Shown here: positions 2,932-53,225 of the stretch, piece by piece | How the letters are laid out: each line of letters starts with the position of its first letter | How positions within the stretch are numbered: the stretch's first letter is position 1 | Assembly (NCBI GenBank): GCA_036785375.1 | Contig: JAWMAR010000074.1 | Span: 7,502,001-7,566,000 of the forward strand | Source: Leucoraja ocellata | Lineage: Eukaryota | Direction: 5' to 3' | Length of the DNA stretch: 64,000 nucleotides | Program-made: the position numbers and the translations under genes | Notes under the pieces: generated by a model | What the model was told of the DNA's origin: nothing | Seen by the model: the letters and a program-made list of their open reading frames with translations, nothing else | Databases searched by the model: none

Positions 2932-3872
2932 TGTGGTCAGGCTCGATGATGGGGCTCGCACCAGGCTCTCCTCCATACCCCGTAACACTGCTCTCTCTCC
3001 CCATCCCCCCCACTCGCAACAAGGGCAGAGTCCCCCTGGTCCTCACCTTTCACCCCACTAGCCGGCACGTACAACAAATAGTCCTCCGTCAGTTTCCCCA
3101 ACTCCGACGTGACCACACCACTCACCACATCTTCCCATCTCCCCCCCTGTCTGCCTTCCACAAAGACTGCTCCCTCCATAACTCCCTTGTTAATTCTTCC
3201 CTTCCCTCCCGCTCCACCCCTTCCCCGGACACTTTCCCTTACAACCGCAAGAGATGCTACACCTGTCGCTTTACCTCCCTCTCGACTCCTTTCAAGGACC
3301 CAAGCAGTCGTTCCAGGTGCGACAGAGGTTCACCTGCATCTCCTCCAACCTCAACTATTGCATCCGCTGCTCTAGATGTCAGCTGATCTATATCGGTGAG
3401 ACCAAGCGTAGGATTGGCGATCGTTTCGTCGAACACCTCCGCTCGGTCCACACTAACCAACCTGACCTCCTTGTGGCTCAGCACTTCAACTCCCCCTCCC
3501 ATTCCGTATCCGACCTCTCTGTCCTGGGCCTCCTCCATGGCCAGATTGAGCAACACCGGAAATTGGAGGAATAGCACCTCTTATTCCACTTGGGGAGTCT
3601 GCATCCTGGTGGCATGATCATTGAATTCTCACAATTCTGTTAACCCATGCTGTCTCCTCCCCTTCCTACCTCTCCCTCAGCCCTCGTCCTCCTCCTCCTC
3701 CTTTTTCCTTTCTTCTCCCCGCCTCCCCCCACCCCCTACCAGTCTGAAGAAGGGTTTCAGCCCAAAACGTTGCCCATCTCCTTCGCTCCATAGATGCTGC
3801 TGCACCCGCTGAGTTTCTCCAGCATTTTTGTGGACCTTCGATTTTCCAACATCTGCAGTTCCTTCTTAAACA
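2932..3872 (+). mobile_element. Penelope-like retroelement, 5'-truncated: GIY-YIG endonuclease remnant plus terminal repeat
   Basis: RVPLVLTFHP, CYTC, FTCISSNLNYCIRCSRCQLIYIGETKRRIGDRFVEH, VAQHFNS; frameshifted and ending in a premature stop at 3572-3574. Confidence 0.92.
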
Positions 3873-5798: not shown

Positions 5799-6408
5799 GA
5801 CTGCAAGAAATGCAACACCTGTCCCTTCACCTCCCCCCTCGACTCCATTCAAGGTCCCAAGCAGTCGTTCCAGGTGCGACAAAGGTTCACCTGTATCTCC
5901 TCCAACCTCATCTACTGCATCCGCTGCGCTAGATGTCAGCTGATTTACATCGGTGAGACTAAGCGGCGGTTGGGCGATCGTTTCGCCGAACACCTCCGTT
6001 CAGTCCGCAATAATCTGCCTGAACTCCCGGTGGCTCAGCACTTCAACTCCCCCTCCCATTCCCAATCCGACCTCTCTGTCCTGGGTCTCCTCCATTGCCA
6101 GAGTGAGCAATACCGGAAATTGGAGGAACAGCACCTCATATTCCGCCTGGACAGCTTGCATCCTGATGGCATGAATGTTGAATTCTCCCAATTTTGCTAG
6201 CCCTTGCTGTCTCCTCCCCTTCCTTAACCCTCGAGCTTTCTCCTCCCATCCCCCTGCCCTCGGGCTCCTCCTCCTCCCCTTTTTCCTTCCTTCTCCCCTC
6301 CCACCCCCCATCAGTCTGATGAAGGGTTTTGGCCCGAAACGTCGCCTATTTTCTTCGCTCCATAGATGCTGCTGCACCCGCTGAGTTTCTCCAGCAATTT
6401 TGTGTACC
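5799..6408 (+). mobile_element. Penelope-like retroelement, 5'-truncated: open GIY-YIG endonuclease domain plus terminal repeat
   Basis: ORF 5751-6200: CKKCNTC, NLIYCIRCARCQLIYIGETKRRLGDRFAEH, VAQHFNS, RKLEEQHLI, PDGMNVEF; colinear with 3245-3835. Confidence 0.94.
6316..6343 (+). ncRNA. Minimal type I hammerhead ribozyme motif
   Basis: CTGATGA-A-GGGT(TTTG)GCCC-GAAA-C-GTC: both core boxes, helix II, ACGT palindrome at helix III and a GUC triplet. Helix I pairing is weak. Confidence 0.75.
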
Positions 6409-6544
6409 TCCTGTTTTTGCTCTTTGCTGGTTCTGATGAAGTATCCTGGACCTGAAACATTACTTTCTACTGTTAAGGCTTAACCTGCTGAATATGTCCA
6501 GCATTTTCTGTTGTATTTCAGAATCTCAAAGGGCACTGAATATA

Positions 6545-11072: not shown

Positions 11073-11250
11073 ATGTTATCTCTGAAAACGAAGGCACGCA
11101 ACAGGCTTGTGATTGGCGCTGACATGAGCTGCTGCCTGTCGAGCATTCGTCCTCGTTTTGATCGCTTGATGAATTTTATACACTTGGTGCTTGCATCTCG
11201 AAGGATCTGTAATCCCAAAATGGGATCAATGTAGGATTGGGTGTAAATAG

Positions 11251-11322
11251 ATGCTGCTGCACCCATAGATGCTCCATAGATGCTGCTGCACCCGCTGAGT
11301 TTCTCCAGCTTTTTTGTGTAAC
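11251..11322 (+). mobile_element. 72-bp Penelope terminal-repeat insertion with 13-bp TSD
   Basis: TGGGTGTAAATAG at 11238-11250 and 11323-11335 flanks sequence matching 6361-6405. Confidence 0.85.
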
Positions 11323-26129: not shown

Positions 26130-26605
26130 CAACTTGGTTTGCTTTCTCTGGAATGCTGAAGGTTGAGGGGAGACCTGATGTGTATGCAAAATTGAGACTG
26201 TCGACAGTTGCAATCTTTCTCCCAGAGTGGAAATGTTAAAGATTAGAGAGTATAGCTTTAAAGTGAAAGTGAAATGTTTTAACTGAGATGTGCAGAACCA
26301 GTTTTCTTACAGAAGGTGGTAGATGCCTGAAATGCACTGCGTGGTGTGGTGGTGGAGGCAAATACAACTGCAGCTTTTAAGAAGCTTTTAGATAGGTGAA
26401 TAGTGGGATATGGATGCAGGCAGATAAGATTTTTTTTTTTTTTTAAATGACAATGCTGGAGTAACTCAGCGGGTTGGGCAGCATCTCTGGAGAACATGCA
26501 TAGGTGATGTTTTGGGTTGGGACCATTCTTCACATTAGTTTATCTTGGCATTATGTTTGGCACATTGTGGGCCAAAGGGCCTGTTCTGTTTGATGTTCTA
26601 TGTAA
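26130..26605 (+). mobile_element. Degraded CR1 3' fragment carrying a Penelope terminal-repeat insert (~26450-26535)
   Basis: ggttgaggggagacctgat, gggccaaagggcctgttc; insert gctggagtaactcagcggg..ttcttcaca. Confidence 0.75.
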
Positions 26606-40930: not shown

Positions 40931-41930
40931 AATAAAACACTCTTGACTCCTCTGTACTCTGGATGAACGGGAGTGACCCAAATGTTGTGCATTTTCAAAC
41001 AGAGATACTGCTTGACCTGCTCAGTTACTCTGGCAACTCCACAAAATTTGTTCCAATTTCCAGCCTCTGTCAGCTGCGATAAACAGAGAATCACAATAAA
41101 AATAGAAATAAATGTCATCTGTGCTGTCCTGGTTCTTTGATGTGAAAGCTTCACGATGTAATCGGAGAGGTTTTGTGAGGATTCTAAAATTCAGGTCTTT
41201 GTGTGCTTGGGGCTGACCACTAAACTGGACTAGACGACCCCATCCAGGGTAGAACAGATTACCAATAAACAAATGTTTTATTATTTTTTCCTTTTCCCCC
41301 GAGATTTAACATATTTCAATACTATTTAGTAAAGATCAGAGCTGAACAATAAGCATAAATTGTTCTTGTAACTTAATCCACATATAGAATTTTGAACTGT
41401 TGTCAAGCATCTATTTTTGAATGATCCATAGCATATCTGATATTTAGATACAATAGTGCTGTTTAAGATCTTTTTGGATAGGAATATGGGTCTGCAGGGG
41501 ATGGAGGGATCTGGGTCATGTGCAAGCAGATGAGTTGGTTTGCTTTATGTTTGGCACAGACATTTTGCAAGCTGAAAGGCCTGTTCTTATACTCTATTCA
41601 ATGTTCCATGTCCAGTCCATGTCCAAAAAAACGATGGTAGATTAGATTCTCCTTGTTGTAAATGTGTGAGATTTATTTAGGTGGCAAATATACCAGTGAG
41701 CAATTATAAACCAACTGTGGCTTTCCCATTTTAGATACAATTGGGGGTGATAGCCTGTGGAGGTCAAATAGTAACAACAGCCAGGACAATGGCACTGGGT
41801 CTGTTGAACAGCAGGGTAGGTGAGTCCTAGCAATAGGGGATTCAATAGACAGGGCGAGACACTAGTTTCTGTATGGAGAGTAATTTAAGATCAGCTGTTA
41901 TTGAGTAAATCCACATTGGCTATGTGGGAG

Positions 41931-42060
41931 GTTACACAAAAAAGCTGGAGAAACTCAGCGGGTGCAGAAGCATCTATGGAGCGAAGGAAATAGGCAACGT
42001 TTCGGGCCGAAACCCTTCTTCAGACAAAACCCTTCTCCAGCATCTGCAGTTCCCTCTTAA
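41931..42060 (-). mobile_element. 130-bp Penelope-derived mini-element with hammerhead motif and 18-bp TSD
   Basis: ACATTGGCTATGTGGGAG at 41913-41930 and 42061-42078; insert is an antisense terminal repeat plus a sense terminal tip. Confidence 0.9.
41996..42023 (-). ncRNA. Minimal hammerhead ribozyme motif
   Basis: Minus strand CTGAAGA-A-GGGT(TTCG)GCCC-GAAA-C-GTT with palindromic AACGTT at helix III. Confidence 0.72.
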
Positions 42061-42384
42061 ACATTGGCTATGTGGGAGTTGTTTTAAGATCATCTTATTG
42101 AGTTCAGAGCTAGCGTGTTCAGTAAGGAGGAGGGATAAAGATGGCAGGGTGAGTGGATCTTGAATTCTAAATTTGATTTAAAAAGATAAAAGAAGCATTG
42201 GCAAGCATTAGAATTCCTGTTTCAGGGACAGTTTCTTCCCAGCTGTTATCAGGCAACTCAATCACAACAAGAGAGCAGTCTTGAATTACTATGTACCCCA
42301 TTGGTGACCCCGGACTATCTTCGATTGGACTTTCCTGGCTTTAACTTGCACTAAATGTTATTCCCATCAGCATTAGAAAAGCTA

Positions 42385-51196: not shown

Positions 51197-51385
51197 AGAA
51201 GGAGACACAAAGAACTGCAGATGATGGAATCTTGAGTAAAAACCAAAGTGCTAGAGTAACTCAGCGGGTCAGGCAGCATCTCTGGAAACCATGGGTATGC
51301 GAGGTTTTGGGTTGGGATCCTTCTTCAAACAGGTCACCTATCCATGTCTTCCAAAGTTGAGTTACCCCAACACTTTGTGTTTTGC
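51197..51385 (-). repeat. Penelope-derived partly palindromic repeat with decayed hammerhead
   Basis: gaactgcagatg..gagtaactcagcgggtcaggcagcatctctgg..ccttcttca followed by inverted tgagttaccccaacactttgtg. Confidence 0.75.
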
Positions 51386-53064: not shown

Positions 53065-53213
53065 ATTGAAGATAGACACAAATGCTGGAGTAACTCAGCG
53101 GGACAGGCATCATCTCTGGAGAGAAGGAAGCTAGAGATGCCTGTCCTGCTGAGTTACTCCAGCATTTTGTGTCTATCTTCAATTTAAACCAGCATCTGCA
53201 GTTCCTTCATATA
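53065..53213. mobile_element. Palindromic Penelope-derived mini-element with 12-bp TSD (11/12 match)
   Basis: Inverted arms ~53065-53117 and ~53133-53183; CATAGTTCATTA (53053-53064) and CATGGTTCATTA (53214-53225). Confidence 0.82.
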
Positions 53214-53225
53214 CATGGTTCATTA

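Follow-up and report, generated by a model that had tools for sequence, protein, structure and literature searches.

A 130-bp insertion in Leucoraja ocellata, most probably a very short copy of an endonuclease-bearing Penelope-like element carrying a hammerhead motif as passenger

The window analysed here, a 64,000-nucleotide stretch of Leucoraja ocellata DNA, contains a 130-bp insertion lying between two exactly matching 18-mers (Table 1). The insertion joins the inverted terminal repeat (pLTR) of a Penelope-like element (PLE) to a short linker and to a sense tail of the same element. Positions within the element are numbered from the A of the pLTR's CAGTCTGAAGA (+1), with the window position on the inverted part equal to 42027 minus n; on this scale the hammerhead core begins at +4 and the predicted cut falls between +31 and +32. 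An earlier reading, made from the sequence alone, had described the insert as an antisense Penelope terminal repeat and a sense tip only. Both parts are present, while "only" does not hold, as the 7-bp linker is also there.

Table 1. Coordinates of the insertion and its parts in the window
Feature	Position	Strand	Remark
Left copy, 18-bp target-site duplication	41913..41930	+	exact 18-nt direct repeat
Inverted Penelope-like pLTR, +2 to +96, without tail	41931..42025	-	95 bp
Minimal type I hammerhead motif	41996..42023	-	identified by sequence pattern; putative ribozyme
Linker, 7 bp, local re-copy of 42010-42016 (repeat D6)	42026..42032	+	
Sense tail of the same element, +103 to +130	42033..42060	+	
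Right copy, 18-bp target-site duplication	42061..42078	+	exact 18-nt direct repeat

The duplication is overlapped by two to three matching letters at both outer ends of the insert. The tail match runs 3 nt into the right copy, reaching +133 (42033-42063 corresponding to +103..+133), and the last 2 nt of the left copy also match the pLTR end (+98/+97), likely representing priming microhomology. At the inner junction, the linker supplies a TTCT microhomology to the tail and is likely a repair scar.

A contig of run X20, from a related organism about 95% alike, joins 41781-41912 directly to 42061-42241 and holds a single copy of the 18-mer. The unoccupied site that the sequence-only reading proposed to seek in relatives thus exists, and together with the exact repeat it confirms the perfect 18-bp duplication claimed there. 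Contigs of runs X15 and X17 end at 41930 and resume at 42061 after 12 unfitted letters with no bridging, a break that fits an empty allele; those of X19 leave the flanks uncovered. The insertion at 41931-42060 is real and recent; its youth is indicated by the inverted pLTR, which differs from the natural sense copy at locus L028 by one mismatch in 97 letters. Other exact 18-mer repeats spaced 50-300 bp apart occur in three stretches of the window, at about 29.6, 37.8 and 46.2 kb. On either side of the target, outside the duplication, lies a degenerate repeat (family D1) some 20 bp long, at 41884-41905 and 42083-42103.

The parent of the insert is present in high copy number. Exact genome matches number 29,991 for a 33-nt word from the core and 64,344 for a 36-nt word downstream of it, giving at least 64,344 pLTR copies. 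Contig C1 carries tandem units of 3,985 bp with long reading frames, divided from one another by the pLTR, and their ORF region matches RVT_1 in Pfam (E 4.9e-07). A CX4CxxC motif preceding a C-terminal GIY-YIG was recognised by eye, and Pfam returned no GIY-YIG in the parent at E<=0.001. A CX2-5CxxC linker motif, alongside RT phylogeny, defines Neptune and is common to Nematis (PMC8557442), and by this motif the parent is provisionally classed as an endonuclease-bearing (EN+) PLE of about 4 kb, of Neptune/Nematis type. Two tandem near-intact 3,985-bp units (L081 and L082; G000:C1, 8.66-8.68 Mb) carry a long proline-rich N-terminal extension, and the strand opposite L081 holds a 313-aa frame labelled by eye as Tc1-like transposase.

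PLE architecture comprises an inverted 5' copy, a pLTR, a one-sided tail of 30-40 bp and a target-site duplication (PMC8557442, PMC3846280). The insert combines the pLTR and tail of an RT+GIY-YIG element with an inverted 5' copy, a one-sided tail, a target-site duplication and an empty site. It resembles EN+ Neptune/Nematis PLEs in having an inverted tail-less pLTR at one end and the tail at the other, a duplication and a pLTR hammerhead (PMC8557442, PMC3846280), and the parent's CX4CxxC before GIY-YIG, seen by eye, is a further likeness. Unlike those elements, its direct part is reduced to the tail alone. Target-site duplications were found in 38 of 41 parsed loci, spanning 6-18 bp with a median of 14 bp, whereas 8-10 bp are given for rotifer EN+ PLEs.

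The end points of copies across the genome show where such insertions begin and stop. Among 150 copies scored at the 3' side (loci L031-L179), the pLTR end is the terminus of 88 and the tail end that of 51; 2 continue into the ORF, and 9 were unscored. For the 5' side, the first 100 matches of the 36-nt word were taken without selection on the 5' end, and 98 distinct contexts were scored: 47 start at -6..+8 (mode +2, 16 copies), 30 are joined to the 3' UTR, 16 start at +9..+30 and 5 at +31..+37. Both sets of counts somewhat overstate independent events, because the assembly has duplicated segments and the sampled copies are partly non-independent. The initial genome search, biased toward look-alikes of the query, is excluded from these boundary counts. 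Near-identical locus pairs megabases apart (contig C1 of G000 and others, for example L033/L044 and L180/L181) point to an assembly with segmental or haplotype duplications.

The 47 starts cluster at a point immediately preceding the hammerhead core, with the predicted cut about 30 nt further downstream. At locus L087, host DNA leads into the pLTR start, the tail and the ORF start; ORF-bearing copies therefore begin at this hot spot too. Reads and contigs of related organisms pass into unrelated sequence there, at +1/+2. The hot spot lies within TCAGTCT, which we take to resemble the initiator consensus, and about +2 is likely the transcription start of the parent RNA. Published PLEs initiate transcription inside the pLTR (PMC2377424, PMC8557442). 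Alternatively, the hot spot may be a splice-acceptor end, as a pyrimidine tract and CAG precede the same point, or a structure-based stop. A cap-derived G before +2 was also considered and dropped, the base there being not clearly G in 22 host-flanked copies (9 G, 9 T, 4 C). That about half of the copies start in one 14-nt window differs from EN+ Neptune/Nematis PLEs as described; a literature search outside subscription journals and Repbase/Dfam entries found no report of PLE stubs with a constant 5' end.

The inverted pLTR carries the hammerhead motif. Read on the minus strand from 42023 to 41996, CUGAAGA-A-GGGU(UUCG)GCCC-GAAA-CGUU comprises the core, an extra nucleotide, a 4-bp helix II with a UUCG loop, GAAA, a palindromic CG replacing helix III, and a GUU triplet, with the predicted cut between 41996 and 41995 and a helix I of 2 bp. 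Identification relied on the pattern of the published minimal hammerhead (PMC4209133), and the features of the minimal type I form are present: core nucleotides, helix II, the palindromic 15.2-16.2 and an NUH triplet. As in metazoan PLE minimal hammerheads (PMC4209133), an extra base follows A9, a G10.1-C11.1 pair and palindromic 15.2-16.2 occur, helix III is lacking, and copies are dispersed singly or on opposite strands. Differences from these are the helix II of only 4 bp, the helix I of 2 bp, and the GUU triplet in the youngest variant. Rfam returned no hammerhead family in the window at E<=1, the four weak matches being unrelated. The intact core reported earlier for the antisense terminal repeat is upheld by pattern, though without an Rfam match. 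Variants of helix II and helix I retain pairing (U-G versus U-A), in a set whose selection pattern itself required part of the stem.

Predicted folding disfavours the hammerhead shape of the monomer, which at -4.3 kcal/mol lies 2.4 kcal/mol above the best fold at -6.7 kcal/mol, and no unusual folding stability was detected on the motif strand, with z values of 0.09 (insert), -0.05 and 0.27. The 2-bp helix I and a best predicted fold other than the hammerhead agree with the weak helix I pairing noted earlier.

The sequence-only reading had offered two origins, one being a retrozyme-like mobile unit with a hammerhead. In such a unit, self-cleavage of a hammerhead dimer would free unit-length or circular RNA, followed by reverse transcription and insertion. 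Non-LTR retrozymes form head-to-tail tandems of 150-450 bp with mostly canonical hammerheads and circular RNAs (PMC7229834; bioRxiv 10.64898/2026.07.22.740005). The insert resembles them in having no protein, a type I hammerhead, a pLTR origin and a longer duplication, and the motif is intact in the youngest copies, with stem variants that keep their pairing. Unlike them, it is a chimeric monomer that spans the cut, with ends that ignore it, a single hammerhead motif rather than two or more in tandem, and a unique junction; head-to-tail units, ends set by the cut and the same unit at many loci are all absent. The disfavoured monomer shape and the lack of monomer cleavage by minimal hammerheads in vitro (PMC4209133) also count against this origin, which is very unlikely and was not borne out. 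Two short head-to-tail pLTR pairs elsewhere, of 234 and 292 bp (L087:1376-1710 and L110:1072-1647), speak somewhat for the retrozyme route; each has about 100 bp of ORF start between the repeats, and L087 has its own target-site duplication. With two tandem hammerheads, these pairs are better retrozyme-like candidates than the insert, although with differing break points.

Junctions at the predicted cut were counted with patterns requiring two non-native bases before the tested position. Matches numbered 3,995 at +2, 247 at +29, 650 at +32, 216 at +34 and 398 at +45, with chance-corrected counts of about 7,100 (by hand), 686, 1,806, 540 and 1,106, respectively. The 650 matches at the cut, compared with 247, 216 and 398 at the three controls, favour ribozyme processing as in the retrozyme route. 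However, half of the 40 classified +32 loci were head-to-head, the others being host-flanked (10), downstream-element jumps (6) and internal deletions (4), and short palindromes underlie many of the head-to-head joins, both at +32 and at +45. Control loci were host-flanked in 5/20, 9/29 and 4/28 cases, with zero downstream jumps. The resulting host-flanked estimate at +32, with one duplicate dropped and with automatic labels that include some errors, was 417 (201-710) versus 213, 135 and 158 at the controls, with overlapping intervals. After removal of one duplicate and one local tandem copy, downstream jumps amounted to 4/39 at +32 versus 0/77 at controls (p 0.011), in a comparison chosen after seeing the data. 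The junction excess at the cut is small and unproven, and suggestive at most. A cut-site test allowing a single mismatch was set aside, its 851 matches at the cut and 1,675 at the control both being mixed with point variants and showing no excess.

Inverted pLTRs within 25 nt of a tail occur 459 times in the genome, and the first 30 such loci contain 25 different linkers, most of the repeated linkers coming from duplicated flanks. The junction word of the window copy has two exact genome matches, the other of which continues into different sequence, and the junction plus tail is single-copy. Short copies and copies attached to the 3' UTR share the two commonest variants (19/15 and 12/14). Because of the diverse linkers, the unique junction and these variants common to both classes, the inverted pLTR-plus-tail shape is one that arises afresh repeatedly from parent RNA, not a lineage. 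Recurrence of boundaries had been suggested as a test of the retrozyme reading against simple truncation. The outer ends do recur, but they do not serve as that test, being the parent's priming sites and its likely RNA start; nor can recurrence be read as ribozyme cutting, as the inner junction varies from copy to copy and the outer ends are not at the cut.

The RNA data came from a related organism, mostly 90-99% alike and likely another species, and comprised polyA and single-cell libraries. No read-end pile-up was seen in its raw RNA reads, a point against the proposed RNA start. Solo pLTRs are abundant in the polyA reads, at more than 40-fold above the adjoining 3' UTR, which would suit a SINE-like non-autonomous element in which solo pLTRs of 97-133 nt are transcribed and re-mobilised in trans, the insert being a rearranged daughter. 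About half of the sampled copies being short with fixed ends, and the 3,995 exact matches with two non-native bases before +2, point the same way. Yet the RNA reads mostly continue into unrelated host sequence at +1/+2, as expected of embedded passengers, the main variants are common to short and ORF-linked copies, and solo copies end at priming sites, without the downstream sequence that the anole enzyme needs (PMC11167929). A SINE-like origin is accordingly considered unlikely. Strand bias in the single-cell reads was set aside as evidence, since it may reflect internal priming.

The insert is best explained, with good confidence, as a very short insertion of an endonuclease-bearing PLE, probably formed when reverse transcription on an uncleaved parent RNA was primed from each strand at a single staggered cut, and now predicted to be immobile. 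The extreme truncated or inverted Penelope insertion that had been proposed as the other origin is thereby supported by the parts, the duplication, the empty site, the parent and the recurrent ends. The element protein would nick the target strands 18 nt apart. The top-strand end would prime at the pLTR end (+96/97) and copy to the RNA 5' end (about +2), while the bottom-strand end would prime at the tail end (about +131) and halt about 28 nt on. The resulting cDNA ends may then be joined through the TTCT microhomology and the short templated linker, with gap filling yielding the 18-bp duplication. Microhomology joining with a templated linker is a pattern of L1 twin priming and of polymerase-theta repair. 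The template would be uncut and the hammerhead a passenger, because the copy reaches 30 nt upstream of the predicted cut. Minor 3' variants restricted to short copies, at 1-3 copies each, count against this explanation.

The inner-junction microhomology and templated linker would also suit deletion repair, in which case the insertion would first have been longer, with the usual inverted pLTR, and its middle would have been deleted afterwards. However, the copy is young, with its single mismatch in 97 and an empty site in a relative, and its inverted part ends at +2 like thousands of copies, an end that deletion would not favour. Such a later deletion is highly improbable.

The closest biochemical parallel to two-strand priming is PAc, a Poseidon element of the green anole, which in vitro nicks and extends both strands and starts synthesis at two neighbouring sites that flank the tail (PMC11167929). 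Unprocessed RNA is its main template, and RNA beyond the initiation sites is needed (PMC11167929). The 3' ends observed here likewise fall at two adjacent sites bounding the tail, and the main 5' end 30 nt upstream of the cut is in line with uncleaved RNA as the main template in anole, the evidence here being genomic. Differences are that the first ATG lies after the tail, at +168, and in PAc inside the hammerhead (PMC11167929), and that the motif would place the element in a different clade. The requirement for sequence beyond the tail is transferred by analogy from the anole element, and on that basis the stub is predicted to be dead. The 130-bp insert is thus most likely a dead one-off by-product of parent copying, and not a self-spreading ribozyme element.

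The single insert is ordinary; its family is useful for understanding how PLEs insert. From the stubs comes in vivo support for priming at two sites, on both strands, and for a template that had not been cleaved; they also point to an exact candidate position for the RNA start and to a candidate for a minor cut. They may, rather doubtfully, amount to an in vivo fossil map of Penelope RNA, recording a main 5' end before the core, two opposite-strand priming sites of one cut, and a minor hammerhead-cut RNA visible as the 2-3-fold excess at +32 and the downstream jumps. If true, it would mean that a PLE minimal hammerhead has cleaved in an animal and left its mark in the genome, a trace without precedent. 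More generally, fixed ends, a target-site duplication and a hammerhead together do not make a retrozyme.

Other copies of the pLTR and older relatives lie in the window at 1606-1683, 3742-3872, 6314-6411, 11247-11322, 26452-26532, 51212-51331 and 53073-53216. The last is a fold-back with tail, which explains a weak Rfam hairpin match at 53088-53159. Elsewhere in the genome, stubs sit inside other repeats at L007, L017, L019 and L079, the host at L007 being, by eye, a PLE endonuclease region.
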